Below, piece after piece: positions 1 through 51,475 of a stretch of 64,000 nt of DNA; position 1 is the stretch's first letter; each line of letters opens with the position of its first letter. The stretch comes from Squalus acanthias (Eukaryota). A program made the position numbers and the translations under genes. The notes under the pieces are model-generated. The model was not told the origin of the DNA and did not search any database. It saw only the letters and a list, made by a program, of their open reading frames with translations. The stretch is from positions 120,158,001 through 120,222,000 of the forward strand of contig CM059431.1 in NCBI GenBank assembly GCA_030390025.1, given 5' to 3'.

Positions 1-1
1 G

Positions 2-1795
2 GCAGGACACTGGCAGCGAGAGGGTAGTGTGTTAGATTTTGGTGTGAATGTACGAAATGTTATGCAGGAAAAGATAGCAGATTATGTGTTCAGAAAGGTA
101 AATCTAACTAAGAAATGGATAAGTGACCTGTTAGCGGATAAGAGTCCACTAGAGGCAGCCGAGAGGTGGACAGATAGTAAGGAACATAAAAAGACAGTCG
201 AGAAAGCAGTCTGGTTAATGTGTTACAAAAGGCAGGTCCAGATTTCAAACCAGGTCATTACAGCGCAAACAGCTCGGATCAGGCATTTGGAGGAGGAAAT
301 GGATGAGAAAGTCTCTGGAGGGGAGTTGCTCATCAGGAATTTAAGTGCGCTGCACCGAGAACGCCAGGAAATCACCAGTCACCACAAAGCAAAAATAGAT
401 TACCTCGAGTGTCAGGTCACTGAGGCAAAGTTAAGTGAGGGCAGACTAAAGGAATGATGTGCCCGCCAAGCTGCCCAAATAAGAGCCCAGGAAGAGAGCT
501 TAACGGGGGTTAGGGCGGCATATAAGATGGCCCTTGAGGATAAATTTCAGGGGGCCGATCATAGCGCCTGCCAAAAGGAGATAGAGCACCTTAAAAGGGC
601 CGTGAACAAAGCGCACGGCATGGTGTGCCTTATCAGTCCGTCAGCACACCAGCCGCTAGTAGATGAGGAGTTTCAGAAATTCCCACCAAGTAAAGCAAAG
701 GAAGTATTAGCCACTACGCCCTCCGCGCCACCCAGCTATTCGGAAACCTGGGTAAGGGAGGAAGTAGTAGAAGAAACGAAAGAGCCCACTGAGGGAGAAG
801 TGGAAAAGGGACCGTTGTGTCCAGTTACGGGTATAAAAAGGGGCCCAAACGGGAACGGTGGGGAACCAGGGGATCTCCTGAACCAGCTTGTGTTGCCTCA
901 CAGCTCACACCAGCTGAGAGTTATGATAAATCACGTACGGAAGCTGACCGAGTCAGACGACCCTTCCGTACATTTCAGAGAAGTTGAGCAAACCGCAGCC
1001 ATTAACGGCTGCGATGATGGGGAAACAGCAAAAATGCTGTTATTTTCGTTAGGCAGTTCAATCCTTCAGTGTCTCTCGGACGAGAGCAAGAGGGGAACCA
1101 AGACATATGAGGCATTAAAAAATGAGGTCCTAGAAGTGTTGGGGACGGACGATGAAGGTCCGTTTCCTAGAGTGGGACAGACAGTGCAGATGGAGGGAGA
1201 ACCCCCGAAGGTTTTTGCCGACAGGCTGTGGCCAGTATATCAGCGCAGCTGTCCAGGTGCGCCAGAGCGCGACGCTGTGGACGGCGTCGGTTTAACTCAT
1301 TGGCTCAGGTGTATAGTAGCCAACAGTTTGCCAGCCGTCAGAGAGCAGGCAAAAGCGTGGTTTGATCCCACTGACCCCAACATTACGGAAGAGTCGGTCT
1401 TAAATCGACTCACGGTAGGATACCGCAATATAAGGGGTATGGGAACACGTCCCCTTAAGGGAAAAGTACATGAGGTACGACCCGCAGCCCCGGCTCAAAG
1501 GGAGTGGCATCAGGAGGGTAACCGCGCCCCGCAGGCAAGTAATGCTTGTTACGGGTGTGGGAGGACAGGGCACTGGCGCAAGAACTGCAGGAACCCTTGG
1601 AAGGATTCCAGGGATAAAAATCCCGCAGCCCGAGCCCAGATGCCTGTCTCGGTTAGGGAAGCTAGTGCACCCACCCGTCCCGACGACCTCGAAACAGTGT
1701 TGGGAGCCATGCGCAACTTCATGAGTGCACATGGAAAAGTGGCGGTTGCTACCGGCCCCGTAGGTGCCGCAGGCCCGTCTAACCATACCCAATGA
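2..1795 (+). pseudogene. gag: Gag (coiled-coil N-terminus, PSAPPSY late domain, capsid-like region, one CCHC knuckle) with one in-frame nonsense codon
   Basis: ORFs 29-457 and 527-1795 are in the same frame. TGA at 455-457 corresponds to AGA (Arg) in copy B. Knuckle is CYGCGRTGHWRKNC. Start codon lies just upstream of the window. Confidence 0.9.
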
Positions 1796-2902
1796 CTAGA
1801 GCCCACGCAGCCTGCCTACCTGTGTCCTTTTAAAAGACACGCACAGGAGGGCGTCGCCGGTGAGGAGGCCAGGTTAAAAGAGCAGGCCTTGCGGGAGGAG
1901 AACGCCCGCTTAATAGGGAAAATAGATGGGCTGGAAGGGCAGCTTAGAGAGCAGGCCCTGCGGGAGGAGAACGGCCGCTTAATGGGAAAGTTAGACGTGC
2001 TCAGGCTAGAAGGGCAGCTTAGGGAAATAAAAGCAGCCTACCAGGTAGCCAGAAGCAGGGATTTAAACCAGTGCAAACTGTACAAGCCAGGTGCACAAGG
2101 GAAAACCACAGGGGCAAAACCTGCGAGTGGGGACTCGCAGCCCCAGGTAGGACCACAAGGCACACAGGCAGGCAAAGCAGCTTGCATCAGGGGAGGAGAC
2201 ATCCTGGAAAATTGTGAAACATTTTTGTGGGGTTGGGAGTCAGATGAGGGAGAGTTCCCGGAACTCGAGTCAGATGAGGATAGTGATGAGGACGAGTGGG
2301 AATCGGGGAACGCAAGGGTCGCCCCCGATTCAGGTATAGGGAGGACAGGGGCTGCAGATAGAGATCCACACAGGGTGGACACCGAGGCTGCAGGTCCTGA
2401 ACAGAGGAGGGAGGAGCTAGGGGAGGCGGAGCCAGCCACTGTGAGACCACAGGGCGTGACGGCGGAAACCTCAGAGCCCGAGCCGCCCGCCTTGAACGTC
2501 CTGCCCTCGAGGGAGGTAGGGATTGCGAGTGAAGGGCCGCCTGCTGGGCCGAGCAGGGCGGTGCCACAAGCTGCAAGTCCCGAGGTCAGGGAGGCGGAGT
2601 CAGGGGAGGCGGAGCCAGCGACTGTGGTGGGACCACAGGTCGTCCCGGTGGAAGTCTCGGAACCCGGTCCGTCGGTCCTGGGATTCCTGCCCCCGACAAC
2701 TCCTCGTAGGTCAAGTCGAGCACCCCAGCCCAGGAAAATGTGGTCATGTCCCCAGACTGCCCCAAGGCGTAGACTCAAGGTTAAGGCAGCCCAGGTAGGG
2801 CCCAGTCCCATCGCAGCAGCAACAGGCTGCGGCAGATCAAAGGAAGGGGTCAGTGCCCTCCCACCGTCGGGAAGAGCTCGCAGCAGCCTTCTCAGAATTT
2901 AA
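1796..2902 (+). CDS. Readthrough ORF: about 11 Pol N-terminal residues + novel duplicated coiled-coil module + acidic/Pro-rich Pol C-terminal tail (no PR/RT/RH/IN)
   Basis: Open and in frame with gag after TGA-CTAG. Matches copy B pol up to about 1827 and again from about 2064 (NQCKLY.PGAQGKTTG ... RARSSLLRI). Confidence 0.8.
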   Translation, partial: LEPTQPAYLCPFKRHAQEGVAGEEARLKEQALREENARLIGKIDGLEGQLREQALREENGRLMGKLDVLRLEGQLREIKAAYQVARSRDLNQCKLYKPGAQGKTTGAKPASGDSQPQVGPQGTQAGKAACIRGGDILENCETFLWGWESDEGEFPELESDEDSDEDEWESGNARVAPDSGIGRTGAADRDPHRVDTEAAGPEQRREELGEAEPATVRPQGVTAETSEPEPPALNVLPSREVGIASEGPPAGPSRAVPQAASPEVREAESGEAEPATVVGPQVVPVEVSEPGPSVLGFLPPTTPRRSSRAPQPRKMWSCPQTAPRRRLKVKAAQVGPSPIAAATGCGRSKEGVSALPPSGRARSSLLRI

Positions 2903-3205: not shown

Positions 3206-5557
3206 ATGGAACGAATTTTGGTATTGCTCGCGGCAATCGGATGTGGATTGGCCTATCGAGGCCGCACCAAGGATGTCGTGGTGTTTGGATGCTCCGGGGA
3301 CACGGCCCCCATCGCGGTGGATGGGACCGGAAGACGGGAGGCTGAGGACACCACCACCTATTTCCACAAGGGAAGGTGGCCAGGATGGCTGGGAACAAAC
3401 TCAACGGAGTATTCTAGCACATCGGGGTTTGCCTACCAAGAGACTTCTTTAATGTGCCCCAAAGTAAGGATCATCGCACCCAGAATCAGCGTCACCGTCG
3501 GCAAACGGATTTGTTTGACTTGTAATGGGAATGTCCCATTGAGCCGATGGTGGTGGCTGCGAAAGCTGAGCAAAAACATGAGGAACTCTTCGGTCGAGTG
3601 GGAACGACTGGGTAATAATACCCATCGGACAATTACGGGGACAAACGGACAAGTGAGAGTCTGTTGGGACAAATGGTGGGAACCGGATGAGGGAATTTAT
3701 GTATGCATGTGGGGGTCAAAGTACGCTTGCCCCAAAGGCATCTCCATATTTTTCATTAACCAATGGCAGGATAACGGACAGGGGATGAGGTGGGATGCGA
3801 GCACCAGGGGGTGCGGAGCCCCATACTCTTCGATCCCGGTAAATGCCACTGAGCTCATTACGCGCCCACGCAAAGCCCCGCCCACGATTCCGGTGGTTCT
3901 AGCTGAAGAGGAAGGGTGCCCTAAAACTAGTAAGGGACCCGGGAATGGTTTGGTACTGGTCCCCACAGACCAGATACTATTTCAGGGGGTACATTACGCG
4001 GTGGCCTCGGTGATTTTAAATCTCACCGAGGTGCGGTTACCAGAGTGGTGCCCCAAAAAGACGGAACAATTATATCAGGTCCTGTTGACCAAGATGTTCA
4101 GACAATTTTACGAATTCAATTTCGCGGAAATTGATAAAACAAGTTTGTACACCGCACCACATGAAGTTTTGGATCAAGTAGGGAGGCAAAGAAGGGGTGT
4201 AGTGAACGACGTGTTCACTGCTTTTAACACGGGTACATCTGTGGTCAACGCTCTAGACAGTGTGGAGCTGCAGACCCAGATTAATGGTTTAAAGACACAA
4301 TTAAAAGACATTCTAACAGATGAAAATAAAGTGGTTGGGTCGGGTTTACATGAGGACCAAGCCATGACTCTCCATTTAAAGGAAATTATAGCAGAGTTGG
4401 AGAAACATGCAAAGACGGTAAATGCCCTGATTAGGGAAGATCGGAATGCATCCGATCAAGCTGCGCAGAACGAGGTGTGCGTGCTTTACGGGGCGTGGTT
4501 ACTGGGCGAGGGCCGCAGTAATTTGGAGGATTTAAAACAAGGTTTGGTCCCGTCCTGGATAAGTAACAAACACCTGCGGGCGCTCCACCCTTTTCAGAAC
4601 GCATTAAGCCCGTGCCAGCTCAGGCTAGCTTCAGAAGCATACCCAGTCCCCGTGGACTGCGGACGATCAAACCATACTATCATGGGTATAGTATTACGTA
4701 TGCCGGTTTTGGGCGACACAGCAAAGCCCGCCCCGATGTATCGGGTAGAGAACATTGGTGTCATTCAGGGGGGAGCCCACATTCGCTATGCAGCGGTTCC
4801 ACCCTACGTCATCCACTGGGAGCAAACGATGACAGGTACAGATCTCTCTGGTTGTCGTGGCAGGGGAGCACACATAATACTGTGTCCCCAGCACTTGAAT
4901 GCCTTTTTAACACCACAGTGCGGGTTCAGAACGGCTGGCGCCAAGTCCATGAATTGCACCATGGAGGCAATGGCACAAGATCATGTGCCTCCGCAGGTAG
5001 CATACATCGGGGGTGGAACATATTGTGTTACCACTGCAGCGCAACACTACCAGCATGGAAACCGTAGCCGGTGTCCGGTGAGTGACAGCAGTTTCTGTTT
5101 TAAACCCAGGGCGGAAGTTCAAGTAGCACAACGGCGAATTGTCCCAATCCCTGAACCATCCACTGTTCATCTAACAGTAAAAGAGAATTTCACCGACTTG
5201 CAGCGATTCGTCGCGCATTTCGGATACCTCATTCCCCCTCTCCCTGAACACCTCACCAAGCTTTTAAAAGCCGTCGCGGTGTCACAGAAACATTTTTACA
5301 CATTAGAACAGAAAACTGTCGAAATAGGAACAGACATTCTGGATATAGTAATTCCACCGTGGTGGAATCTGTTCACCAATATTGAAGTGCCTTCATGGAT
5401 CAGAATAGCCTCCCACATTTTAGTCGTATGCCAAGTTTTTATTGTAGTGTACCTATTGATCGTACATTGTAAAAGAGGCAAACGCCTCACCAAGCATGAA
5501 AACACGGGAGTGTGGCGAGAACGTTACGTGCGCGTGCACGATGAAAGCACCGTGTAA
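3206..5557 (+). CDS. env: Env glycoprotein, 783 aa: signal peptide, Ig-like domain, class I fusion protein (Mononegavirales F-like), TM anchor, cytoplasmic tail
   Basis: MERILVLLAAIGCGLA signal peptide at ATG 3206 (the frame is open from 3047). Furin site RQRR at 4184-4195 followed by a fusion-peptide-like stretch and heptad repeat. Cys-rich region, TM segment SHILVVCQVFIVVYLLIV, several NxS/T sequons. Confidence 0.88.
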   Translation: MERILVLLAAIGCGLAYRGRTKDVVVFGCSGDTAPIAVDGTGRREAEDTTTYFHKGRWPGWLGTNSTEYSSTSGFAYQETSLMCPKVRIIAPRISVTVGKRICLTCNGNVPLSRWWWLRKLSKNMRNSSVEWERLGNNTHRTITGTNGQVRVCWDKWWEPDEGIYVCMWGSKYACPKGISIFFINQWQDNGQGMRWDASTRGCGAPYSSIPVNATELITRPRKAPPTIPVVLAEEEGCPKTSKGPGNGLVLVPTDQILFQGVHYAVASVILNLTEVRLPEWCPKKTEQLYQVLLTKMFRQFYEFNFAEIDKTSLYTAPHEVLDQVGRQRRGVVNDVFTAFNTGTSVVNALDSVELQTQINGLKTQLKDILTDENKVVGSGLHEDQAMTLHLKEIIAELEKHAKTVNALIREDRNASDQAAQNEVCVLYGAWLLGEGRSNLEDLKQGLVPSWISNKHLRALHPFQNALSPCQLRLASEAYPVPVDCGRSNHTIMGIVLRMPVLGDTAKPAPMYRVENIGVIQGGAHIRYAAVPPYVIHWEQTMTGTDLSGCRGRGAHIILCPQHLNAFLTPQCGFRTAGAKSMNCTMEAMAQDHVPPQVAYIGGGTYCVTTAAQHYQHGNRSRCPVSDSSFCFKPRAEVQVAQRRIVPIPEPSTVHLTVKENFTDLQRFVAHFGYLIPPLPEHLTKLLKAVAVSQKHFYTLEQKTVEIGTDILDIVIPPWWNLFTNIEVPSWIRIASHILVVCQVFIVVYLLIVHCKRGKRLTKHENTGVWRERYVRVHDESTV

Positions 5558-5997: not shown

Positions 5998-6008
5998 ACA
6001 GGAGGGAC
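5998..6008 (+). promoter_or_regulatory. Short polypurine tract (ACAGGAGGGAC)
   Basis: Purine-rich run immediately 5' of the TG that starts the 3' LTR; identical in copy B. Confidence 0.7.
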
Positions 6009-6585
6009 TGTAGAATTCGCAATATATCGCGATTTTATAAATAAGGAGAAAAACACATAGTTTCGTTCAAACAGCTTTTATTTCAGCAGAATGCTGTCAG
6101 GTTTTCAAAGTGGACACAAGCAGCTTGTAAAATGGCCGCCGCACCTCGTGGCAGAACATTCTAGACATTTCAACAGGCAGACAAGATGGCGTTCCAGTAA
6201 ACATTTGTGCAAGATCGATTAGGACTCAGCACATTTAAAATAATACACGAGACATCATGGTTTCACAGTATACACATAAATACTGAAATCGGTCTCCCAG
6301 GTGCGAATGAGGGCTGTTGTACCAAGTAATCAAGAACCCATCCAAAGACATTAATATGTAAAATCCCAACGACTCTACGATGAGAGAGCCGTTAGCGGGT
6401 AGTTACAGAAAACACTTGGAAGCCCCAAAACCCCTCCAGGGAGAACACCGACCGATTAAACAATGGGAGAAATATTAACAGGTACTCAGACAGTTACAAG
6501 TAGCCCCGAAACCCATTAAAACGAAGATCACCCTATACAAGACATTTGAGCGCCAAACCCTAACAAAAGAAAAGACATTAAGGTT

Positions 6586-6616
6586 GGGCGGGAAACGGAA
6601 GATTTTGCACTATAAT
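6586..6616 (+). promoter_or_regulatory. Putative LTR core promoter (GC box GGGCGG, ETS-like CGGAAG, TATAAT)
   Basis: Motif cluster conserved in all three LTRs in the window. Confidence 0.55.
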
Positions 6617-7376
6617 TGCAAGCTCCAAACCGTCCATCTTTCTCTTGACTCTTGACTCTTATTCGATTGACTCTTATCCTCATGGCTGCTCCTGTGCTCT
6701 TGACTCGCCGTCTTGTTCCTGCTTGCCTCGTGTCTCTTTTCAAAAGACTGTTGAACTTTACGATCCGCTTGAATCTACCTCGTGTCGTGTCGCGAAGACC
6801 TGTGTAGAACTGGGCTCTGAAGCCTTGAAACGGGCGCACCATTCCGCTAAGTCGGTAAACGGTGTTGGAACCGAAGGCCCGAGATGAGATGAGATGAGAT
6901 GAGATGAGATGAGAAGAGAAGACGGCAATACATCTCGTCATGGTCAGTAAACCCCGACCGCGCCCGAAATAAGTGAACTTTGTAGGTTTTGATCGGGAAT
7001 CCAAGGTCAGCACCGATCTTCATGACAGCAGACGTTCCAGCCTGCTAGCCGGAGCAGAAACGAGTAAACAAGTGGGGCCAGGAGACCCCCTGATCGACAC
7101 GTGGGCGCTGCGGTGAAAAACATCCGATCAGAGTTTTCGGAATTCTCCGAGTTATCACGAGTGGTGAGCATGAGTCTCGAATCCTACGAATCTAGCTTAG
7201 GACAGATATTGATAGGGGAGGGTTTTAAGTATTAAGGATAATTGTAATGTGTGCCCCCATTTACGATGTGTCGTTCGTTCCTCGTTTCCCCGAAATTAGT
7301 TACATAACTGCGTGTAAGATTGTACTGTCATTAATCTGTGCTTATGACATGTATTTCGTAATCTTAAGTATTATGC

Positions 7377-7382
7377 AATAAA
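7377..7382 (+). terminator. Putative LTR polyadenylation signal AATAAA
   Basis: Conserved at the equivalent position in copy B LTRs (38858-38863 and 50004-50009, minus). Confidence 0.55.
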
Positions 7383-7622
7383 GATTTTCCATTTCGTACC
7401 ATTCAACCGAGTCTACCTGAGTTTCATCTCCATTACTGCTCTCGCATCTAAGTCCAGTGTCTAGAACCGTAAGGGCGAGTGGGTCGAACCACTCACAGGG
7501 GTGTCTAGTGCTCCCAGACTGGCTGGAGACCAGAACAGGCAACAAGGCCTAAACCCGCACTAGCACCCGGGCTGCACAGAGCCACACGAATCTCACAGGC
7601 TGAGAGACAAAAAACCCTTACA

Positions 7623-8713
7623 ATTAACACGGTCTAATAAAAGAACCCTCCTGCGAAATAAACTAACACAGGACCCCGGCACTAAACCCCTCTAAGGTTT
7701 GGTTGGGACTTACAATCACCCCCTCACACAGCTACGTGGTCTTGTGGATGTGTAGGCGCAGGCAATATGCTCACCCCGATTGCCCGTTGTCTTGCTTGCA
7801 GCTTCTTCCTGTACATCTCGCTCCTGGTTCCGTACTGCCGACGTGATATCCAAGTTCCAGTTTGAGTCGAGGTCCGTTGATTAGGGATGAAGAGCAGTGC
7901 TCAGCTTCTGGCAGTGTTCCGTCGAGCCAAGCCACACTCGGGAGACTCACTGTAGATTGATGCCGAAGAGAAGAGAGAGAGTCCCTGAACGGCTCCTGAT
8001 ATACCCAAAACCCATCGCCTTTTCCTCCTGCCAATACTGATCGATGTATTGACTCTGGTGATCTGTCTGGACCCCCCTGTGTCCTGGAGTGACTCATGAC
8101 CTTTGAAATCTTTGTGAAAAATGATATTCCGTTTCCCCGCTCCCAGGCCTGGCACCTGGAGAGACAATGAGTGCTGATTACTGGATGTCTGTCGTTTCCT
8201 GAGTTGATGGCCCCCATTAGCAGGTAATGGGTTTCAGTCTCAAACCAAACTTGCTTAACTGGCTTATCTCCTGGAAGACAATGAGTGCTGATTACTGGAT
8301 GTCTGTCGTTTCCTGAGTTGATGGCCCCCATTAGCAGGTAATGGGTTTCAATCTCAAACCGAACTTGCTTAACTGGCTTATCTCCTTGAAGACAATGGCC
8401 TGGCCATCTCCTGCCTTCCACCAGTTTCGGTTGGGACTGTATTTTATCGATAGTGTCTCTGAGTTACCTCTCGGGGTATTGTTGCCAGTAATCATGTTAG
8501 ATGGTGATGACGTCAATCGGCCTGGGTTCCCTTCCACCCAGCCTGTCAGTGTGAGATGGCCATTCGCATATGAATGCACCTTAGTCAGGTTAGCCTGGCT
8601 TGCAATCCTATTCCCTAAGCCACTCCCACAAGCTTGCCCAACAGTACAGTTCTTTCTTGGAGTTTTGGATATAAAATATGATTCATAAAAATGGCCAGAA
8701 AGCTGGTGCTACA
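7623..8713. mobile_element. Probable LTR of an unrelated element into which copy A inserted
   Basis: Ends in ...GCTACA exactly where a LINE 3' tail resumes mid-sequence (8714). Carries an enhancer-like tandem duplication. The other end is not visible. Confidence 0.4.
8162..8397. repeat. 114-bp tandem duplication (2 copies plus a partial)
   Basis: AGACAATG recurs at 8162, 8276 and 8390 with near-identical units. Confidence 0.9.
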
Positions 8714-38619: not shown

Positions 38620-40329
38620 TGTAAGGGATTCCTGACCCTGCGTGTCTCGCAGCCTGTGAGATTCACGCGGCTCTGTGCAGCCTGTATGTCAGTGCGGGTC
38701 TAGGCCTGGTCTCCAGCCAGTCTGGGAACACTAGACACACCTGCGAGTGGTTCGAATCACTCTCCCTTACGGTTCTAGACACTGGACTTAGATGCGAGAG
38801 CAGTAATGGAGATAAAACTCATGTAGACTTGGTTTGAATGGTACGAAATGGAAAATCTTTATTGCATGATACTTAAAATTATGAAATACATGTCATAAGC
38901 ACAGATTAATGACAGTACAATCTTACAAACAGTTATATAGTCGATCTTAGGGAAACGAGGAACGAACGGCACAAAGTAAATAGGGGCACACATTACAAAT
39001 ATCCTTAATCCTTAAACCCTCCCCTATCAATATCTATCCTAAACTAGATTCGTAGGATCTTGAGACTCATGCTCACCACTCGTGATAACTCGGAGAAATT
39101 CCGAATAGCTGATCGGATGTTTTTCACCGCAGCACCCACGTGTCGGTCAGGAGATCTCCTGGTCCCACTTGTTTACTTGCTTCTGCTGCTCCGGCTAGCA
39201 GGCTGGACCGTCTGCTGTGATGAAGACCTGTGTTGGTTGGCTTAACAGGTACTCTTGGAGCACAGTTGTCAATATCATCGATACGATGTGTTTTCACGTT
39301 CCAATCTCCTTGGACACAGTCCCGTTATCGTCGATGCAATATGTTTTGTTAAAAGTTCAAAAGAGAAATCTTCCTGGCGAGGAAAACTTGGCTAATCGAC
39401 CTACAGGCGCGGTCGGGATTTACTGACCGTGGCGATGGATATGGTCTTCCTCTCTTCTCATCTCATCTCATCTCATCTCATCTCATCTCGGGCCTTTGGT
39501 TCCGCTGCCAGTTACCAACATAGGTCTTCGTTACGCGACACGAGGTAGATCCGAACGGATCAGAAAGTTCAACAGTCTTTTCAGAAGAGGCAACAGGCAA
39601 GCAGAAGCCCAACTACGAGTACACAGGAGCAGCCACGAGGTTACGAATCGACCGGATAAAGGCACAGGAGCAAGCGAGCGAATGCAAGAGCAAGAGAGAG
39701 AATGGACGGTTTGGAGCCTGCAATTATAGTGCAAAAATCTTCCGTTTCCCGCCCAACTATAATGTCCATTCTTTTGTTTAGGGTTTGGCGCCCAAATGTC
39801 TTGTATGGGTGATCTCCGTTCTTAATGGGTTTCGGGGCTACTCGTAAATGTCTGAGTACCTGTTAATATTTCTCCCATTGTTAAATCGGTCGGTGTTCTC
39901 CCTGGAGGGGTTTGGGGCTTCCAAGTGTCCTGTATAACTACCTGCTAACGGCTCTCTCATCGTAGAGTCGTTGGGATTTTACATATTAATGTCTTTTGGA
40001 TGGGCCCTTGAGTACTCGGTACAATGGCTTTCCTTTGTACCTGGGAGACCGATTCCAGTATCTATGTTTATACTGCAAACCCATAATGTCTCGTGTATTA
40101 TCTTCACTGTGCTGAATCGTAATCGATCTTGCACAAATGTTTATTGGAACGCCATCTTGTCTGCCTGTTGAAAAGTCTAGAATGTTCTGTCACGAGGTGC
40201 GGCGGCCATTTTACAGGCTGCTTGTGTCCAATTTAAACCTGCCAGCATTCTGCTGAAATAAAAGCTGTTTGAACGAAACTTTGTGTTTTCTCCTTATTAA
40301 TCACATCGCGATATATTGCGAATTCTACA
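38620..40329 (-). repeat. 3' LTR of copy B (1710 bp)
   Basis: Direct repeat of 49753-51475 apart from a 13-bp deletion near 38707 and two substitutions seen by eye. Confidence 0.97.
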
Positions 40330-40340
40330 GTCCCTCCTGT
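40330..40340 (-). promoter_or_regulatory. Polypurine tract ACAGGAGGGAC
   Basis: Directly abuts the 3' LTR. Confidence 0.7.
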
Positions 40341-40771
40341 TGATGCGAATAACTCCGCTTATCGTATCAAAAATCATAGTGGTGAGCAATATTATCTCGA
40401 TTTCTCTCCGAATCCAGTAAATTAATCCCATAATTTTTAACTTATCTAGGGTCTCTGTGTCGTCCTTATTTCCCAAGAAAATTACATTTTACATCACCGT
40501 AGGCATTATTTGCCCTTAAACTTACACCACTTGTTTTCCTTCCCGGCGTAACCAGGCCGATACCTCTCGTATCACCTGTATATTTGTCTTTTATTCAGGG
40601 AAAGGAAAAAACAAAACCCAAAACCAAACAATCAACACCATCACCAAAATAATCAAAACCCCAACTCTTAAAACATGTCGAGTTCCCAACGTATTTACAA
40701 TCTCTGAAAATCTTATATGAGTACAAACTTCCGCGGCGCACGCGGCGAGCGGGAGTGACGCCATTTTCCGA

Positions 40772-43123
40772 TTACACGGTGCTCTCATCGTGCACGCGCA
40801 CGTAACGTTCTCGCCACTCTCCCGTGTTTTCATGCTTGGTGAGGCGTTTGTCTCTTTTACAATGTATGACCAATAGGTACACTACAATAAACACTTGACA
40901 TACGACTAAAATGTGGGAGGCTATTCTGATCCATGAAGGCACTTCAATATTAGTGAACAGATTCCACCACGGTGGAACTACTATGTCCAAAATGTCTGTT
41001 CCTATTTCGACAGTTTTCTGCTCTAATGTATAAAAATGTTTCTGTGATACCGCGACGGCTTTCAGAAGTTTGGTTAAGTGTTCAGGGAGAGGGGGAATGA
41101 GGTATCCAAAATGCGCGACAAATCGCTGCAAGTCGGTGAAATTCTCTTTTACTGTGAGATGAACAGTGGATGGTTCAGGGATTGGGATGATTCGCTGTTG
41201 TGCTACTTGAACTTCAGCCCTGGGTTTAAAACAGAAACTGCTGTCACTCACCGGACACCGGCTACGGTTTCCATGCTGGTAGTGTTGCGCTGCAGTGGTA
41301 ACACAATATGTTCCACCCCCGATGTATGCTACCTGCGGAGGCACATGATCTTGTGCCATTGCCTCCATGGTGCAATTCATGGACTTGGCGCCAGCCGTTC
41401 TGAACCCGCACTGTGGTGTTAAAAAGGCATTCAAGTGCTGGGGGCACAGTATTATGTGTGCTCCCCTGCCACGACAACCAGAGAGATCTGTACCTGTCAT
41501 CGTTTGCTCCCAGCGGATGACGTAAGGTGGAACCGCTGCATAACGAATGTGGGCTCCCCCCTGAATGACACCAATGTTCTCTACCCGATATACCGGGGCG
41601 GGCTTTGCTGTGTCGCCCAAAACCGGCATGCGTAATACTATTCCCATAATAGTATGGTTTGATCGTCCGCAGTCCACGGGGACTGGGTAAGCTTCTGAAG
41701 CTAGCCTGAGCTGGCACGGACTTAATGCGTTCTGAAAAGGGTGGAGCGCCCGTAGGTGTTTGTTACTTATCCAGGACGGAACCAAACCTTGTTTTAAATC
41801 CTCCAAATTACTGCGGCCCTCGCCCAGTAACCACGCCCCGTAAAGCACGCACACCTCGTTCTGCGCAGCTTGATCGGATGCATTCCGATCTTCCCTGATC
41901 AGGGCATTTACCGTACGCGCATGTTTCTCCAGCTCTGCTATAATTTCCTTTAAATGGAGAGTCATGGCTTGGTCCTCGTGTAGACCTGACCCTACCACTT
42001 TATTCTCATCTGTTAAAATGTCTTTTAACTGTGTCTTTAAACCATTAATCTGGGTCTGCAGCTCCACACTGTCTAGAGCGTTGACCACAGATGTACCTGT
42101 GTTAAAAGCAGTGAACGCATCGTTCACCAAACCCCTTCTTTGCCTCCCTACTTGATCCAAAACTTCCTGTGGTGCGGTGTACAAACTTGTTTTATCAATT
42201 TCTGCAAAATCGAATTCGTAAAATTGTCTGAACATCTTGGTCAACAGGACCTGGTACAACTGTTCCGTCTTTTTGGGGCACCATTCTGGTAACCGCACCT
42301 CGGTGAGATTTAAAATCACCGAGGCCACCGCGTAATGTACCCCCTGAAATAGTATCTGGTCTGTGGGGACCAGTACCAAACCATTCCCGGGTCCCTTACT
42401 AGTTTTTGGGCACCCTTCTTCCTCAGCTAGAACCACCGGAATCGTGGGCGGGGCTTTGCGTGGGCGCGTAATGAGTTCAGTGGCATTTACTGGGATCGGG
42501 GAGAATGGGGCTCCGCACCCCCTGGTGCTCGCATCCCACCTCATCCCCTGTCCGTTATCCTGCCATTGATTAATAAAAAATATGGAGATGCCTTTGGGGC
42601 AAACGTACTTTGACCCCCACATACATACATAAATTCCCTCATCCGGTTCCCACCATTTGTCCCAACAGACTTTCACTTGTCCGTCTGTCCCCGTAATTGT
42701 CCGATGGGTATTATTACCCAGTCGTTCCCACTCGACCGAAGAGTTCCTCATAGTTTTGCTCAGCTTTCGTAGCCACCACCATCGGCTCAATGGGACATTC
42801 CCACTACAAGTCAAACAAATCCGTTTGCCGACGGTGACGCTGATCCTGGGTGCGATGATCCTTACTTTGGGGCACAGTAAAGAAGTCTCTTTGTAGGCAA
42901 ACCCCGAGGTGCTAGAATACTCCGTTGAGTTCGTTCCCAGCCATCCTGGCCACCTTCCCTTGTGGAAATAGGTGCTGGTCCCCTCTGCCTTCCGTCTTCC
43001 GGTCCCATCCACCGCGATGGGGGCCGTGTCCCCGGAACATCCAAACACCACGACATCCTTGGTGCGGCCTCGATAGGCCAATCCACATCCGATTGCCACG
43101 AGCAATACTAGAATTCGTTCCAT
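40772..43123 (-). CDS. env: Env glycoprotein, 783 aa (signal peptide, Ig-like domain, F-like class I fusogen, TM)
   Basis: Intact ORF with the same motifs as 3206-5557; about 27 amino-acid differences by manual count. Confidence 0.9.
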   Translation of the reverse strand: MERILVLLVAIGCGLAYRGRTKDVVVFGCSGDTAPIAVDGTGRRKAEGTSTYFHKGRWPGWLGTNSTEYSSTSGFAYKETSLLCPKVRIIAPRISVTVGKRICLTCSGNVPLSRWWWLRKLSKTMRNSSVEWERLGNNTHRTITGTDGQVKVCWDKWWEPDEGIYVCMWGSKYVCPKGISIFFINQWQDNGQGMRWDASTRGCGAPFSPIPVNATELITRPRKAPPTIPVVLAEEEGCPKTSKGPGNGLVLVPTDQILFQGVHYAVASVILNLTEVRLPEWCPKKTEQLYQVLLTKMFRQFYEFDFAEIDKTSLYTAPQEVLDQVGRQRRGLVNDAFTAFNTGTSVVNALDSVELQTQINGLKTQLKDILTDENKVVGSGLHEDQAMTLHLKEIIAELEKHARTVNALIREDRNASDQAAQNEVCVLYGAWLLGEGRSNLEDLKQGLVPSWISNKHLRALHPFQNALSPCQLRLASEAYPVPVDCGRSNHTIMGIVLRMPVLGDTAKPAPVYRVENIGVIQGGAHIRYAAVPPYVIRWEQTMTGTDLSGCRGRGAHIILCPQHLNAFLTPQCGFRTAGAKSMNCTMEAMAQDHVPPQVAYIGGGTYCVTTAAQHYQHGNRSRCPVSDSSFCFKPRAEVQVAQQRIIPIPEPSTVHLTVKENFTDLQRFVAHFGYLIPPLPEHLTKLLKAVAVSQKHFYTLEQKTVEIGTDILDIVVPPWWNLFTNIEVPSWIRIASHILVVCQVFIVVYLLVIHCKRDKRLTKHENTGEWRERYVRVHDESTV

Positions 43124-43412
43124 CCTTCCTTGGTTCCTGTGATCAGATAGAATGAGGTAGCCAGCCTCGCAAGAGTCTCTGGCTTTTGTGAAGGGTGAGC
43201 GGGTCCCCTGACCTCGCCTCACGTAAACTTCAACGTTTGCTGAATAAACTTCCACTAAACCTATCTTTAAAAACTCCCATCATTTTATCGTTTTCTGTTA
43301 AAAACACTACAAACTTAGCCTTATTAAAAAAAACTATAAACTTAACCTTGAACTATAAACTTAAAACTTAACTTCTTACTATACAGTGCCGCCCGTTCTC
43401 AGGGCGGCCCCT

Positions 43413-46400
43413 TTAAATTCTGAGAAGGCTGCTGCGAGCTCTTCCCGACGGTGGGAGGGCACTGACCCTTCCCTCTGATCTGCCGCAGCCTGTTGCTGCG
43501 CTGACCTTTCCCTCTGATCTGCCGCAGCCTGTTACTGCTGCGATGTGGCCGGTCTGTACCCGGGTTATCTTAACCTGAAGTCTACGCCTTGGGGCAGTCT
43601 GGGGACATGACCACATCCTCCTGGGCTGGGGTTCTCTGCTTGACCTACGGGGAGTTGCTATGGGCGGGGGTTCCGTGACGGACGGACCGGGTTCCGAGAC
43701 CTCCAACGGGATGACCTGGGGTTCCATCACAGTCGCCGGCTCCGCCTCCGCTGACTCCGCCTCCCTAACCTCGGGGCTGGCAGTTCGTGGCTCCGCCCTG
43801 CTCGGCCCAGCAGGCGGCCCTTCACTCGTGATCTCTGCCTCCCCTGAGGACTGGACGTTCAAAGCGGGCGGCCACATCTCTGGGAGCCACACCGGTACTC
43901 TCTGTGCTCCTATAGCGGCTGGCCCTGCCTCCTCTAGCTCCTCCCTCCTGTCCTCGGGACCTGCAGCTTGTGTGTCCACCCTGTGTGGGTCTCTACCTAT
44001 AGGCCCCATTCCTTCCAGACCGTTCCTCAGGAACCACCCGTCATCATCACTATGCTCATCTGCACTATCCTCATCTGACCAGGGTACCCTGGGTTCTTCC
44101 TCATCTAACCCCCAACTCCAGAAAAACGCTGCATGATCGTCCGGGATGTCCCTTCCCCTGATGCAAGCTGCTATGCCTGCCTGTGTGCCTTGTGGTCCTA
44201 CCTGGGGCTGTGCTTTCCCATTGGCGGGATTTACCCCTGTAGTTTTCCCCTGCGCACCTGGCTGGTACAGTTTGCATTGGTTTATGTGGAACCACTTAGT
44301 GCGCCGAGGTACTTTTACGGCGTAAACCATGGGACTCGCCTTGTCTACAATGTTGTAGGGTCCCATATACAGTGGTTCCAGACTCCCTACTCTGGCGTAG
44401 TTTCTGACCATGACCTGGTCTCCTACTTCCCACTCCCGCGTTTTGCGGGGTTCCAGCAACAAGCGATTGCCCTGATGCTGCCTTCCCATGTTCCCAGCCG
44501 CCTGCTCATAAACTTGCTTCAGGCGCTCCAAGAGAGTCTGGGCGAACTTGTCCCTGCTTATCTCTTGGAGCTGACCCTCAGTGAGCACCGGTGCTAGCAC
44601 ATGGGTGGGGGTTCGCATGAGCCTCCCAGTCATTACCTCGTGCGGGGAGTACCCCGTACTTTTTGACTGACTGGCCCGGACCCCCATGAGGACTAAAGGC
44701 AGAACTTCCGCCCATTTTTGGGGCGAGTTCCTAGTCTCTTTCCTCAATTTCTCCTTCAGGGTCCGGTTCATACGTTCAACAATCCCGGATGACTGGGGAT
44801 TGTGTGCTACGTGCCACTTCCCTTCAATGCCCAAAAGCATGAGGGTGTTCTGCATCACCTGGCCGGTGAAATGACTCCCTTGGTCTGACTCCACAAAACG
44901 GGGAAGTCCCCACCGCGAGAACACTTCCCGGACCAAGATTTTTGCTGTACCCAGTGCCGTAGCTGTTCGACAAGGGAAGGCTTCCACCCACTTGGAAAAC
45001 ACATCCACCAGGACGAGGCAGTACTTATAACCTCCCTGGGTGGTGGGCAGGGGTCCTATATAGTCGATCTGTATCGACTGCCATGGTCCCTCTACCCTTC
45101 TTACGTGTCCCATGGGCACCTTCCTTTTCTGGGGGTCTGGGTTGTTTGCAGCGCACACAAGACAGTTTGCACAGAACTCGCGGACTTGTTCCCTGAGCCC
45201 TGGCCACCATCCCGCTTGCTCTACCCGTTGCCAGGTAACCTCGGGCCCGGGGTGCCCTGCCCCTGGTCCCTCGTGAGCCAACTGGAGGAATTCCCTCCTG
45301 TGCTGCTGCGGCACAACCCACTGCTCCTCGCGGAACAGCATGCCTTCCTTAACTGAGAGGGTTGCCGTACTGTACGGACCTTCTACCCGCCTCCCCTCAG
45401 CAATCGTTTTTAGGACTGCTTTTAGGGCGGGATCCTGGGCTTGGACGGTCTTGAGGTCTAGGGGCAATGCTACCCTGGTGTTCCCGGGATTCCCATCCCC
45501 GCCTCGGACCGCTGCTATGGGTCCGGTCCTATAGGGGTTCCAGAAAATGCCGTCGCGGGCACCCTCCCTGGCTAGCGCATCCGCCTGCCGGTTGCCCTCC
45601 CCACGGGGCTCTGTGGAGGAGTGAGCTTTCACCTTATGGATGAAAGTCTCTCCTTCCTCCCCTACTGCTGCTGCTAAGATCTTTTCCAGCAAGGGCTTCA
45701 CCGTTAAAGGTCGCCCGTCCGCGGAGGTGTATCCGCGGCGGGACCAAATGGCCAGGTATTCCGTACACGAATTGCAGGTGAACATACTGTCCGAGCAAAT
45801 CGTGTATGGGGTTGGGAAAATGTCTGGGTGGGTCACAACGTACACCACGGCAGACAGCTCAGCCTGCTGCGCGCTCATGGTGCTAGGGAGCTTGATTGCC
45901 AGGGCAAGGTCTGCCGCAGGGTCATAAACTCCACACCCTGTGAGTCGCTCGCCAGCAGACACTGTGCTAGACCCATCAACATAAATCTCGCGCCCAGTGG
46001 GATGTATCCCGGCCCGTAAACCTATGTTGACATCCCACACCCCTTCCACCGAACACCGGTGGGCTGTACCGGGGTATACCAAATTGGCCGCAAGCCTGGG
46101 CTCGCAAAGACCTTTTACTCTAAGATCCAACTGGGAGAGAAGAAGGGTCCAACGCGCAATGCGTGCGCTGCTTACGGTCCCGTCTTTAATCCTCCCATCC
46201 AGAAGCATCTTAGTTGGTGTGTGATGTGTGAGGAGAGTGATGGGAGAGAGCCCTGTGAAGATCGCTGATCTTTTCACAGCCCAATGCGTGGCTAAAAGGT
46301 GCCTTTCGCAATTGGAGAAACTTCTCTCCACATCCGTTAATACCCTGGATGAGTAGACAACCGGCCTCAGCTTGCCGTGACGCTCTTGGAGCAGCACGGC

Positions 46401-47936
46401 GCTTAAGCTGTCTCCGCTGGCAGCTACCTCCAGGAAAAACTCCTTCCCCCCATCTATGGCCCCTAAGGCTGGCGCGGTCTGCAGATCCCCTTTTAACTTC
46501 TCGAAGGCTGCTTGGCAGCCCTCGTCCCAAAGCCACTCCACCCCCTTATGGAGGAGTCGGAGGAGCGGCGCCGCTGTGGCCGCATAATCTTCGATAAAAT
46601 CCCTGCAGTAACCGGTCAGTCCCAAGAAGGACCTCACACCCCTTACGTTGTTGGGAATCGGTAATTCTTGCACCGACTCCCTCCTTGCTTTGTCTATGGC
46701 TCTTTCCCCAGCGCGTATGGTCAGTCCCAGGAATTTTACTTCCCGCTGACCGATACGTGCTTTCTTAGGGTTTATTTTAAAACCCTTTCTCGCTAACAGT
46801 TCCAATAACTCGTCCAGTAGTGGTCCGTGCTCCTCCCTTGAGTCCGTAAATAGGAGCAAATCATCCACATACTGTACTATCTGATTGGGCTGACTAAACT
46901 CCTTTAAGCTTCCTGCCATACACTGATGAAAAATACTGGGGCTATTGTGGAAACCCTGTGGCAGACAGTTCCACGTGTACTGTTGCCCTTTGAAAGTAAA
47001 GGCAAACTTGTACTGGTCCTCTCGCCGCAGCGGGATGGACCAAAAACCGTTCGAGATATCCAGCACCGTGAACGTGGTCGCGGACGCTGGGATGCTCCCT
47101 ATTAGGTCAGCAACTGCTGCTACTGTGGGCGCGCAGGCGGGAATGTTACTGTTAAGGACTCTGTAGTCCACCGTGGCTCTCCACGAATTATCCGGCTTCC
47201 TAACCGGCCATAATGGGGAGTTCACGTGTGTGGCTATCGGCCTCAACACGCCCTGCTGCACCAAGGAAGACATTGCTGTCTCCATATCGGGTTCTGCTTC
47301 TTTGGGGAAGTTATACTGCTTTTGGGGTCGGGTCATGGGGTCCCCATCTACGCTGACCTCAAACCCGACCACTCTCCCACAATCGTGCTTGTGGGTTGCA
47401 AACGCGTGCATATTATCTGACACGTACGTTTGCATGTCCGTTGGGACATCTGCGACCATAAGCCTGAGGTCGTAGCCTCCGGATGGCTGTACGGTACACA
47501 GGACCCCTGTTTCTTCCTCCCCCGGAATCACTATTACCTCGCCTTTTTCACCTTTAGCCCCCCAGAGACAGTGATTTCTGAGGTCCACGAGGATCCCGTG
47601 TCCCGCTAGGAGATCGGACCCGAGAATACCTCTTCCACCCCCCTTTTGCCATGCCATCAGTATACACTTCCACTTAAGGCGAAGTGTTCCTAAACGAATG
47701 GATAGCGGAAGGGAAAACGTGCCAGCCTGTTCTTTTCCTGTGAACCCTGCCAACGTGAATGGGACCTTGGTAGATAGCGGCGAGTCAAAAGGGTTATCTG
47801 TATGGATTATGGTGCAAGAAGCTCCCGTGTCCAACAAATAACTGCCCTTCTGTTTCTCTACCTCCATCTCCACCACAGGTCGCCTCCACGCATCATAGCT
47901 AAGCGGACACAGGTAGACGGGCTGTGCTGGTTCTAG
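43413..47936 (-). CDS. pol: Pol: aspartic protease, RT, degenerate RNase H (tether), RNase H, integrase, GPY motif, about 290-aa low-complexity tail; probably made by gag stop readthrough
   Basis: LLDTGAS and GILGSDLL; LPQGFHNSP and YVDD; IYVDGSS..AEL..SDS..GNRQAD; HHCC plus IDYIGP, SDQGSHF, VERMN. The frame is open right up to the gag TGA. Confidence 0.96.
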   Translation of the reverse strand, partial: LEPAQPVYLCPLSYDAWRRPVVEMEVEKQKGSYLLDTGASCTIIHTDNPFDSPLSTKVPFTLAGFTGKEQAGTFSLPLSIRLGTLRLKWKCILMAWQKGGGRGILGSDLLAGHGILVDLRNHCLWGAKGEKGEVIVIPGEEETGVLCTVQPSGGYDLRLMVADVPTDMQTYVSDNMHAFATHKHDCGRVVGFEVSVDGDPMTRPQKQYNFPKEAEPDMETAMSSLVQQGVLRPIATHVNSPLWPVRKPDNSWRATVDYRVLNSNIPACAPTVAAVADLIGSIPASATTFTVLDISNGFWSIPLRREDQYKFAFTFKGQQYTWNCLPQGFHNSPSIFHQCMAGSLKEFSQPNQIVQYVDDLLLFTDSREEHGPLLDELLELLARKGFKINPKKARIGQREVKFLGLTIRAGERAIDKARRESVQELPIPNNVRGVRSFLGLTGYCRDFIEDYAATAAPLLRLLHKGVEWLWDEGCQAAFEKLKGDLQTAPALGAIDGGKEFFLEVAASGDSLSAVLLQERHGKLRPVVYSSRVLTDVERSFSNCERHLLATHWAVKRSAIFTGLSPITLLTHHTPTKMLLDGRIKDGTVSSARIARWTLLLSQLDLRVKGLCEPRLAANLVYPGTAHRCSVEGVWDVNIGLRAGIHPTGREIYVDGSSTVSAGERLTGCGVYDPAADLALAIKLPSTMSAQQAELSAVVYVVTHPDIFPTPYTICSDSMFTCNSCTEYLAIWSRRGYTSADGRPLTVKPLLEKILAAAVGEEGETFIHKVKAHSSTEPRGEGNRQADALAREGARDGIFWNPYRTGPIAAVRGGDGNPGNTRVALPLDLKTVQAQDPALKAVLKTIAEGRRVEGPYSTATLSVKEGMLFREEQWVVPQQHRREFLQLAHEGPGAGHPGPEVTWQRVEQAGWWPGLREQVREFCANCLVCAANNPDPQKRKVPMGHVRRVEGPWQSIQIDYIGPLPTTQGGYKYCLVLVDVFSKWVEAFPCRTATALGTAKILVREVFSRWGLPRFVESDQGSHFTGQVMQNTLMLLGIEGKWHVAHNPQSSGIVERMNRTLKEKLRKETRNSPQKWAEVLPLVLMGVRASQSKSTGYSPHEVMTGRLMRTPTHVLAPVLTEGQLQEISRDKFAQTLLERLKQVYEQAAGNMGRQHQGNRLLLEPRKTREWEVGDQVMVRNYARVGSLEPLYMGPYNIVDKASPMVYAVKVPRRTKWFHINQCKLYQPGAQGKTTGVNPANGKAQPQVGPQGTQAGIAACIRGRDIPDDHAAFFWSWGLDEEEPRVPWSDEDSADEHSDDDGWFLRNGLEGMGPIGRDPHRVDTQAAGPEDRREELEEAGPAAIGAQRVPVWLPEMWPPALNVQSSGEAEITSEGPPAGPSRAEPRTASPEVREAESAEAEPATVMEPQVIPLEVSEPGPSVTEPPPIATPRRSSREPQPRRMWSCPQTAPRRRLQVKITRVQTGHIAAVTGCGRSEGKVSAATGCGRSEGRVSALPPSGRARSSLLRI

Positions 47937-49748: not shown

Positions 49749-49752
49749 TTTC

Positions 49753-51475
49753 TGTAAGGGATTCCTGACCCTGCGTGTCTCGCAGCCTGTGAGATTCACG
49801 CGGCTCTGTGCAGCCTGTATGTCAGTGCGGGTCTAGGCCTTGTTGCCTGTTCTGGTCTCCAGCCAGTCTAGGAACACTAGACACACCTGCGAGTGGTTCG
49901 AATCACTCTCCCTTACGGTTCTAGACACTGGACTTAGATGCGAGAGCAGTAATGGAGATAAAACTCATGTAGACTTGGTTTGAATGGTACGAAATGGAAA
50001 ATCTTTATTGCATGATACTTAAAATTATGAAATACATGTCATAAGCACAGATTAATGACAGTACAATCTTACAAACAGTTATATAGTCGATCTTAGGGAA
50101 ACGAGGAACGAACGGCACAAAGTAAATAGGGGCACACATTACAAATATCCTTAATCCTTAAACCCTCCCCTATCAATATCTATCCTAAACTAGATTCGTA
50201 GGATCTCGAGACTCATGCTCACCACTCGTGATAACTCGGAGAAATTCCGAATAGCTGATCGGATGTTTTTCACCGCAGCACCCACGTGTCGGTCAGGAGA
50301 TCTCCTGGTCCCACTTGTTTACTTGCTTCTGCTGCTCCGGCTAGCAGGCTGGACCGTCTGCTGTGATGAAGACCTGTGTTGGTTGGCTTAACAGGTACTC
50401 TTGGAGCACAGTTGTCAATATCATCGATACGATGTGTTTTCACGTTCCAATCTCCTTGGACACAGTCCCGTTATCGTCGATGCAATATGTTTTGTTAAAA
50501 GTTCAAAAGAGAAATCTTCCTGGCGAGGAAAACTTGGCTAATCGACCTACAGGCGCGGTCGGGATTTACTGACCGTGGCGATGGATATGGTCTTCCTCTC
50601 TTCTCATCTCATCTCATCTCATCTCATCTCATCTCGGGCCTTTGGTTCCGCTGCCAGTTACCAACATAGGTCTTCGTTACGCGACACGAGGTAGATCCGA
50701 ACGGATCAGAAAGTTCAACAGTCTTTTCAGAAGAGGCAACAGGCAAGCAGAAGCCCAACTACGAGTACACAGGAGCAGCCACGAGGTTACGAATCGACCG
50801 GATAAAGGCACAGGAGCAAGCGAGCGAATGCAAGAGCAAGAGAGAGAATGGACGGTTTGGAGCCTGCAATTATAGTGCAAAAATCTTCCGTTTCCCGCCC
50901 AACTATAATGTCCATTCTTTTGTTTAGGGTTTGGCGCCCAAATGTCTTGTATGGGTGATCTCCGTTCTTAATGGGTTTCGGGGCTACTCGTAAATGTCTG
51001 AGTACCTGTTAATATTTCTCCCATTGTTAAATCGGTCGGTGTTCTCCCTGGAGGGGTTTGGGGCTTCCAAGTGTCCTGTATAACTACCTGCTAACGGCTC
51101 TCTCATCGTAGAGTCGTTGGGATTTTACATATTAATGTCTTTTGGATGGGCCCTTGAGTACTCGGTACAATGGCTTTCCTTTGTACCTGGGAGACCGATT
51201 CCAGTATCTATGTTTATACTGCAAACCCATAATGTCTCGTGTATTATCTTCACTGTGCTGAATCGTAATCGATCTTGCACAAATGTTTATTGGAACGCCA
51301 TCTTGTCTGCCTGTTGAAAAGTCTAGAATGTTCTGTCACGAGGTGCGGCGGCCATTTTACAGGCTGCTTGTGTCCAATTTAAACCTGCCAGCATTCTGCT
51401 GAAATAAAAGCTGTTTGAACGAAACTTTGTGTTTTCTCCTTATTAATCACATCGCGATATATTGCGAATTCTACA
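49753..51475 (-). repeat. 5' LTR of copy B (1723 bp)
   Basis: Minus strand TGTAGAATTCGC...CCCTTACA; TATAAT at 50869-50874 with an upstream GC box. Confidence 0.97.

Follow-up and report, generated by a model that had tools for sequence, protein, structure and literature searches.

The window analysed here is a stretch of 64,000 nt from Squalus acanthias (assembly GCA_030390025.1, contig CM059431.1, positions 120,158,001 to 120,222,000 of the forward strand), which carries two proviruses of one endogenous retrovirus (ERV) family. Copy A, at the start of the window, has a short in-frame segment with a predicted helix in place of the pol enzymes, and copy B is a full-length provirus on the opposite strand. 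An earlier note made from these letters had read copy A as a non-autonomous partner of copy B. The analysis described below indicates that copy A very probably belongs to an amplified pol-less lineage of such elements.

Organization of the two proviruses

The features of the window on which the analysis rests are as follows (LTR, long terminal repeat; PR, protease; RT, reverse transcriptase; IN, integrase).

1..1795 (+): gag of copy A, 88.5% identical to gag of copy B; its first 10 nt lie outside the window (ATG at window -10), and its normal stop is the TGA at 1793-1795
1793..1799 (+): TGA-CTAG readthrough context at the gag end, kept in 20 of 20 whole copies examined and present in copy B
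1796..1827 (+): first 32 nt of the pol frame, parental, upstream of the protease; the alignment to copy B ends at 1827
1828..2063 (+): 236-bp replacement segment encoding a continuous predicted helix, in place of the 3.6-kb PR-RT-RNase H-IN segment of copy B
1880..1948 (+): heptad unit 1 (EQALREENARLIGKIDGLEGQLR), 23 codons by codon-register alignment
1949..2023 (+): heptad unit 2, 25 codons by codon-register alignment, a copy of unit 1 plus a 6-nt insertion
2064..2902 (+): C-terminal tail of Pol, beyond the SH3 domain of the integrase, acidic and proline-rich with internal repeats; 79.8% identical to copy B 44284-43498; TAA at 2900-2902
3206..5557 (+): env of copy A as an open reading frame (ORF) of 783 codons, with an upstream in-frame ATG at 3047
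6009..7622 (+): 3' LTR of copy A (TGTAGAATT...CCCTTACA), from alignment of the LTR pair; the 5' LTR lies upstream of the window (locus L025, 613-2226)
7623..7626 (+): target-site duplication (TSD) ATTA of copy A, with its partner at L025 609-612
38620..51475 (-): copy B, full-length provirus with gag, pol (1484 aa) and env all open; LTRs at 51475-49753 and 40329-38620, TSD TGGG
44285..47904 (-): PR-RT-RNase H-IN segment of copy B, absent from copy A (blastn, Pfam)

The layout was obtained by blastn with window 1-7000 as the query against the whole window. Three parts of copy A were aligned to copy B, namely 1-1827 to 49737-47905 (88.5% identity), 2064-2856 to 44284-43498 (79.8%), and 2816-6813 to 43499-39508 (92.5%). 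No counterpart was found in copy B for 1828-2063 of copy A (236 bp), nor in copy A for 47904-44285 of copy B (about 3.6 kb). The latter segment, within the 1484-aa Pol, gave Pfam matches to protease-like, RVT_1, RNase_H, Integrase_H2C2 (integrase zinc-binding), rve, and SH3 families, and the substitution of 236 bp for the four enzymes, as claimed in the earlier note, was borne out. Pfam assigned no PR, RT, RNase H, or IN family to the 368-aa readthrough product of copy A, and no family to the Pol tail at 2064-2902. The frame at 1796-2902 is open for 368 codons directly behind the gag TGA-CTAG and ends with the TAA at 2900-2902; the claim that the frame is preserved from UGA-CUAG through the Pol tail also held. 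The gag of copy A is itself interrupted by an early TGA at 455-457, with the readthrough frame and env of the same copy both open.

The LTRs of copy A match over 1614 bp with 20 mismatches (L025 613-2226 against 8250-9863), and those of copy B, 1723 bp in length, differ by two mismatches and one indel. The pair alignments give an LTR length of about 1.6-1.7 kb, in place of an earlier value of about 0.95 kb that proved wrong. The LTRs of both copies begin with TGTAGAATT and finish with CCCTTACA, and their bodies are 86-90% identical between A and B. The flanks read ATTA on both sides of A and TGGG on both sides of B. Copies A and B are identical at the polypurine tract (PPT) and LTR start, and again at the LTR end, a primer binding site (PBS)-like 18-mer, and the gag start. 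The gag ATG lies 5 nt past the end of the 1.6-1.7-kb LTR, inside the PBS-like 18-mer (window 49725-49760 on the - strand; L025 2220-2260), which indicates an overlap of the primer binding site with the beginning of the gag coding sequence.

Gag and pol share one frame with a single TGA stop (TGA-CTAG) between them, and the TSDs are 4 bp long. Among solved proteins, the best matches were the XMRV/MLV reverse transcriptases for the RT-RNase H part (1e-69) and the PFV integrase for the integrase part (2e-33). Judged by the gag-stop-pol arrangement, the TSD, and the RT features, the family is assigned to class I ERVs (gamma/epsilon-like, with gag-UGA readthrough). Behind the gag UGA, predicted RNA structure was nothing notable, with z-scores of -0.64 (copy A), -0.25 (copy B), and -0.26 (L061). 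No splice joint was seen in the Logan contigs of public sequencing runs, with RNA only guessed at.

Amplification of the pol-less lineage and its potential helpers

The pol-less junctions are repeated throughout the genome. With a 371-bp query (window 1760-2130), 40 of 40 matches scored spanned both junctions with 96-100% identity and lay on many contigs. A 30-mer across the 5' junction (two or fewer mismatches) occurred at 1,101 genome places, as against none for its reversed control, and the gag-PR junction 30-mer of full-length elements occurred at 2,119. Twenty whole copies were fetched (L025-L044), together with the readthrough region only of 14 further copies. Both LTRs were present in 16 of the 20 loci, and the pairs were 98.48-99.87% identical. 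Both ends were visible at six loci; five of these have clear and distinct 4-bp TSDs (ATTA, CCAG, CCAC, GTGC, and CCTG), and the sixth, L027, lies inside a tandem repeat with an unclear TSD. The differing flanks and distinct TSDs indicate separate integrations, several of which are as young as copy B. Pairwise, the pol-less copies differ by 0.9-7.1%. Furthermore, contigs from two other public sequencing runs (X5 record 20 and X9 record 26), one of which may be the assembled sample, bridge the 5' junction.

The proposal that copy A is not a simple deletion fits these observations. Other copies with the same junctions and their own TSDs exist, as the earlier note had expected of a real lineage, and the junction is neither private to this locus nor a product of assembly, being found at 1,101 places and bridged in other runs.

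Pol-less junctions recur about 7.72 kb apart (for example, C1:143657921, 143665644, and 143673362) and full-length junctions about 11.05 kb apart (for example, C3:117795024, 117806099, and 117817122); another derivative shows six junction recurrences at a spacing of 6,417 nt (C3:64286081-64318164). Such fixed spacings suggest head-to-tail proviral arrays sharing LTRs.

The pol-less elements fall into deep subfamilies. A one-unit subfamily copy (L059+L064, C3:185307500-185308700) is 75.7% identical to copy A over the frame, and another copy, L060, has two units without the 6-nt insertion. A motif from the L059-type 3' part was found at 446 genome places; of the 46 exact junction places on contig C1, 12 have it at two-unit spacing. 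In L059+L064, a segment at the integrase end and tail start is doubled behind the insert, the first copy being diverged and shortened, and the frame is open throughout.

Pol-bearing relatives are abundant and equally young. All of the 40 B-type junction matches scored were 99-100% identical; some full-length copies identical over 371-bp windows and some LTR pairs 99.9% alike point to very recent or ongoing activity of the ERV. Between copies A and B, gag differs by 11.5% and the tail by 20%. A 30-mer from gag that is characteristic of A occurred at 438 places, some of them about 11 kb apart as in full-length tandem arrays, and in L061-L063 an A-like gag end (96.5-97.5% identical to A and 82-86% to B) is followed by a protease with DTGAS, 91-92% identical to that of B. 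Elements of this kind, full-length and A-like at the gag end, could serve as helper in place of B, and copy B is probably not the closest candidate. The suggestion that copy A relies on a helper such as copy B therefore agrees with the absence of the enzymes and the abundance of young pol-bearing relatives, but probably not with the choice of B; that copy A supplies Env to its helper was unsupported, as copy B has an open env of its own. The exact A-type linker with any base but T behind it was also tried as a sign of full-length elements and was rejected; it occurred at two places, both of them pol-less variants.

The replacement segment and constraint on the reading frames

Within the replacement segment, blastn detected a direct repeat (1866-1947 against 1936-2022, 82% identity), and the two heptad units read earlier at 1880 and 1949 were confirmed. 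In most copies, the unit pair shows 5 synonymous and 3 non-synonymous differences; the corresponding numbers in copy A are 6 and 4. The unit-to-unit ratio was 0.18 (Fisher P 0.014), and the off-frames gave 0.9 and an undefined value. AlphaFold2, applied to 1796-2140, predicted one long helix at residues 12-95, with a block-mean pLDDT of 90-98 at residues 21-80, in agreement with the coiled coil expected in the earlier note. When the sequence was read by eye, Leu, Ile, or Val recurred at 3-4-3-4 spacing in each unit, with Asn at a core position. The insert has leucine zipper or coiled-coil features in its predicted continuous helix and heptad hydrophobics; prediction of a homodimer of the 79-aa insert scored 0.18 against a mark of 0.32, which counts neither for nor against a dimer. 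A Rab11-FIP3-like domain (PF25450) in the readthrough product was rejected, as its 17.1 bits fall below the gathering cut-off of 31.9 and reflect a generic coiled-coil resemblance.

As to its origin, the insert was aligned to residues 104-181 of the Gag of copy B with a Smith-Waterman score of 54, compared with 33.5 +/- 5.0 for shuffled sequences (1 of 500 shuffles reaching 54). Against the N-terminal coiled coil of this Gag (residues 104-187), the z-scores were 4.1 for the A insert (1/500 shuffles), 3.9 for the one-unit form (3/1000), and 4.6 for the L060 peptide (0/1000). The A insert and the one-unit form showed no Smith-Waterman excess against Pol or Env; the L060 peptide also gave a z-score of 3.1 against Pol (10/1000 shuffles). 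Within the window, the Gag coiled coil is the sole collinear resemblance to the insert. With composition-adjusted BLASTP, the Gag-insert alignment was absent and the top match was another segment (E 0.066). The echo of Gag noticed earlier at the REIKAAYQVA end of the insert is therefore collinear, but weak and unsupported by the adjusted search. Likewise, the description of the insert as unrelated sequence stands in that it has no counterpart in copy B, but the segment may be a diverged piece of a gag coiled coil. On sequence resemblance, we give roughly even odds to descent from the gag of a distant relative, an origin that is plausible and not established.

The donor search suggested in the earlier note returned no donor. 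A word-indexed collection gave no hit to proteins of 202-644 aa with E <= 0.1, a search of 1.84 billion protein representatives gave no match at E <= 0.001, and nothing else was found at the DNA level within the window. In the genome, a donor was not found among the 40 matches scored, all of which were pol-less copies; with the insert alone as the query, 40 of 40 matches scored were full length and 97-100% identical.

The readthrough frame was compared among the copies. It reaches its normal stop in 15 of the 20 whole copies and 7 of the 14 further ones (22/34). Nonsense changes were counted in 32 usable copies, L049 and L058 being left out with rearranged or interrupted tails, and the expectation was derived from how many CpG transitions, other transitions, and transversions had been observed. 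Among 239 substitution events, a single nonsense change was seen against 8.25 expected (Poisson P 0.0024). The corresponding numbers in the five other frames were 12 against 10.1, 7 against 8.7, 2 against 7.7, 6 against 7.0, and 4 against 5.3; since these control frames are near expectation, the method is unbiased and the pol frame stands out. Furthermore, the frame of the one-unit copy L059+L064 is open for 350 codons, with no nonsense change among 255 differences as against 9.9 expected, and its dN/dS is 0.56; that of L060 is 0.61. For the tail, dN/dS between copies A and B is 0.78. The readthrough frame behaves like a fast-evolving coding region, probably disordered, in which openness matters more than the residues.

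Near the end of the tail, a 39-nt unit (AATGCGRSKEGVS; window 2816-2856; loci L029-L056) is present in 1, 2, or 4 copies per provirus, always in frame. Three candidate signals in this region were discarded. The antisense ORF at 2811-2038 (257 aa) had 4 new stops against 5.3 expected and a codon-position pattern unfitting for a gene. The pN/pS of 0.39 in the +1 frame of the tail is a composition effect, stops being very frequent in that frame. L039 and L052 both have a 1-nt deletion near 2419, which is recurrent and not inherited, as these copies differ at 46 of 1,209 sites.

The gag and env genes of the pol-less copies were also compared by pairwise Nei-Gojobori pN/pS. Of the 20 copies, 10 have an open gag, 9 an env open at full length, and 2 more an open env altered in length internally; 4 copies have gag, env, and the readthrough frame open together. 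The pN/pS was 0.25 for gag (off-frames 1.36 and 0.94) and 0.14 for env in 9 copies (off-frames 1.32 and 1.71). In both genes, third-position diversity was 2-4 times that at the other positions. Variants found in at least two copies were synonymous and non-synonymous in ratios of 63:13 for env and 74:58 for gag. Gag and env of the pol-less lineage are under purifying selection, indicating that elements already bearing the deletion diversified while their own capsid and envelope genes were constrained. Among the 20 copies, 8 frameshifting indels were counted in gag; env had 7, counted in the 16 copies that are free of large rearrangements in this gene. The synonymous divergence between copies A and B was 0.228 in gag (1-1795 against 47937-49737) and 0.123 in env (3206-5557 against 40772-43123). 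The halved value in env suggests a mosaic history with recombination between lineages.

Singleton nonsense changes were seen 6-8 times in gag among the 20 copies (L025-L044) and once in env among 16, with similar opportunities for stops. Gag-defective pol-less copies may be better tolerated than env-defective ones.

Elsewhere in the window, a long tandem array at about 10900-16100, with RETQTGERGREKHKLGRE-like units in translation, produced background matches in tblastn. An ORF of 129 aa at 52459-52848 on the - strand resembles the C-terminal part of a LINE reverse transcriptase.

Interpretation and comparison with known systems

Taken together, these findings suggest that copy A belongs to a pol-less provirus lineage that is old and diversified, was active recently, and derives from a class I ERV family. 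In a single ancestral event, PR, RT, RNase H, and IN would have been lost, leaving about 80 codons of helical heptads that join the start of pol in frame to the Pol tail. The lineage would have retained the LTR ends, PBS, and PPT of the family along with its own gag and env, and may have spread by packaging its own RNA and taking protease, reverse transcriptase, and integrase from full-length relatives expressed alongside it, probably including the full-length elements that are nearer to A at the gag end than copy B is. Dependence on helper proteins is suggested because the enzymes are absent and the integrations are young. Readthrough of the gag UGA would yield a minor Gag-helix-tail protein replacing Gag-Pol, with loosely constrained residues. 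As selection has apparently kept the frame open, the element probably produces this protein and draws some benefit from it, for example as an assembly-competent stand-in for Gag-Pol.

The non-autonomous, amplified pol-less lineage by itself appears highly probable, and we put the whole statement, including a selected fusion frame, at a probability of roughly 0.6. Expression of the Gag-helix-tail protein, and selection for it, are on balance probable but unproven. An interfering or satellite role for the lineage is speculation. The boldest form of the interpretation is a true satellite retrovirus in a vertebrate genome, with capsid and envelope genes of its own and a fusion built from a recycled Gag-type coiled coil, duplicated within the lineage, which serves as a stand-in for Gag-Pol, joins helper particles in assembly, and takes up their enzymes, in a frame kept open across more than 20% divergence and some 1,100 copies; we regard this form as possible but doubtful.

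The evidence on constraint of the readthrough frame is mixed, leaning to a frame kept open, and several observations weigh against a selected fusion. Within the sampled subfamily, pN/pS was 0.985 over the readthrough frame and 1.11 in the tail. The insert gave 0.52, a value indistinguishable from those of its off-frames (0.40 and 0.94). Codon-position diversity was 0.039/0.031/0.024 in the tail and 0.019/0.015/0.018 in the insert, with no third-position excess, and tail variants in at least two copies comprised 17 synonymous and 48 non-synonymous changes. Frameshifts, 11 indels in 9 of the 32 usable copies, occurred at a rate like that of gag and env. In addition, an in-frame junction at one event is a 1-in-3 chance, the copies sampled were those most like copy A in the 371-bp query and not a random set, and both the subfamily divergence and the gag and env signal could have been partly imported from full-length relatives by recombination. 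The pN/pS values, the flat codon-position diversity, and the frameshift rate, together with LTR pairs that differ by at most 1.5%, so that little decay has followed integration, and the lack of an insert homologue in two protein searches, are what would be expected of an inert by-product, a trans-complemented deletion derivative with a functionless helix-tail that is open through youth, GC-richness, and a chance in-frame junction. Such a by-product seems rather unlikely in view of the eightfold depletion of nonsense changes in the readthrough frame only, with the five control frames at expectation, a copy of 75.7% identity open for 350 codons against 9.9 expected stops, mainly synonymous divergence between the units, and a dN/dS of 0.56-0.61 between subfamilies. 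As to the dN/dS check on the insert and tail proposed in the earlier note, constraint was not clear within the subfamily (0.52 and 1.11) but was indicated between subfamilies; decay of the frame in sibling copies was not neutral for nonsense changes, but frameshifts were as frequent as in gag and env. The proposed Gag-zipper-tail protein stands in so far as its frame is open and depleted of stops; the fusion is plausible only, and constraint on the tail is weak or absent.

An interfering element would require the Gag-helix-tail protein to co-assemble with the Gag and Gag-Pol of the helper and cut its output, either as a defective-interfering genome or as a restriction factor beneficial to the host. 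The full Gag joined to a predicted long helix would suit this role. Engineered zippers behind the HIV-1 protease in Gag-Pol reduce particle yield, according to the cited part of that work (PMC3291649), and the passages cited from a study of bovine ERVK elements propose that non-autonomous morphs parasitise their helpers (PMC10924933). However, about 1,100 dispersed copies with purifying selection on gag and env resemble a replicating parasite and not a fixed host gene, full-length elements are twice as numerous and extremely young with no visible suppression, and the engineered zipper effect needed protease activity, which the fusion lacks; we consider this role improbable. An assembly artefact, or a single locus multiplied by segmental duplication, draws on little but prior expectation and the tandem arrays of some copies at about 7.7-kb spacing. 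It is refuted by the 1,101 junction places spread over assembly contigs, the differing flanks and TSDs, the pairwise differences of 0.9-7.1%, and the bridging of the junction in contigs of other runs, so that we give it next to no weight.

On the preferred reading, copy A is, as far as its sequence tells, a trans-complemented, internally replaced ERV morph of the kind of ETn/MusD, recKoRV, and the bovine ERVK D-type, with mobilisation in trans as the probable mode of spread. It is without enzymes, shares LTR termini, PBS, and PPT with young pol-bearing relatives, and repeats its junctions at loci with their own TSDs. As in IAP I-delta-1, ETn/MusD, and recKoRV/KoRV-A, the morph is internally deleted or replaced, and its helper proteins would come from full-length relatives. 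IAP I-delta-1 makes a novel Gag-Pol fusion protein affecting its own mobilisation in cis. In the I-delta-1, ETn/MusD, and recKoRV morphs, env is absent or non-functional, and the elements retrotranspose or depend wholly on a helper. In EAV-HP, the pol deletion is family-wide, and in the Gag-Zip chimeras of HIV-1 a zipper stands in place of NC. We know of no such morph in which a coiled coil replaces the enzymes while env stays under selection. A keyword search of an open-access literature subset found no prior description of such a form or of this ERV family, which does not show its absence from print. The pol-less morph is unusual within its kind in that gag and env are kept and the replacement is in frame and coding.

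As a rule, non-autonomous ERV morphs are passengers devoid of genes; this pol-less lineage has shed the enzymes only, within an ERV family of thousands of copies in the genome. If the fusion protein is real, it would show which retroviral parts are needed in cis and which can be borrowed, and would provide a natural experiment on the non-catalytic share of Gag-Pol in assembly.

Among described systems, the HIV-1 chimeras in which engineered zippers behind the protease alter Gag-Pol multimerisation resemble copy A in having a zipper-type module fused into the Gag/Gag-Pol frame; those constructs, as presented in the part cited, are laboratory products that retain the protease, whereas the fusion described here is natural, without protease, and known from its sequence alone (PMC3291649). 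In one chicken EAV-HP copy, pol is missing altogether and gag and env are incomplete; like copy A, it is a pol-less provirus with LTRs and gag and env parts among inserted copies. In copy A, gag and env are entire, and an in-frame replacement module is not described for the EAV-HP copy in the portion of the report cited (PMC3554524). For bovine ERVK[2-1-LTR], D-type non-autonomous and C-type autonomous morphs occur with young insertions of both in one genome, and the cited passages propose trans-complementation and recombination between them, naming ETn/MusD, IAP I-delta-1, and recKoRV as parallels (PMC10924933). As in the D-type, a central ERV segment has been exchanged in copy A, with LTRs and flanking gag and env parts retained, and the non-autonomous morph is numerous. 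Unlike the D-type, which those passages describe as being without functional genes and as the majority form, the pol-less morph described here has complete and selected gag and env, open in about half of the sampled copies, carries a short (236 bp), in-frame, coding replacement, and is about half as frequent as the pol-bearing junction (PMC10924933).

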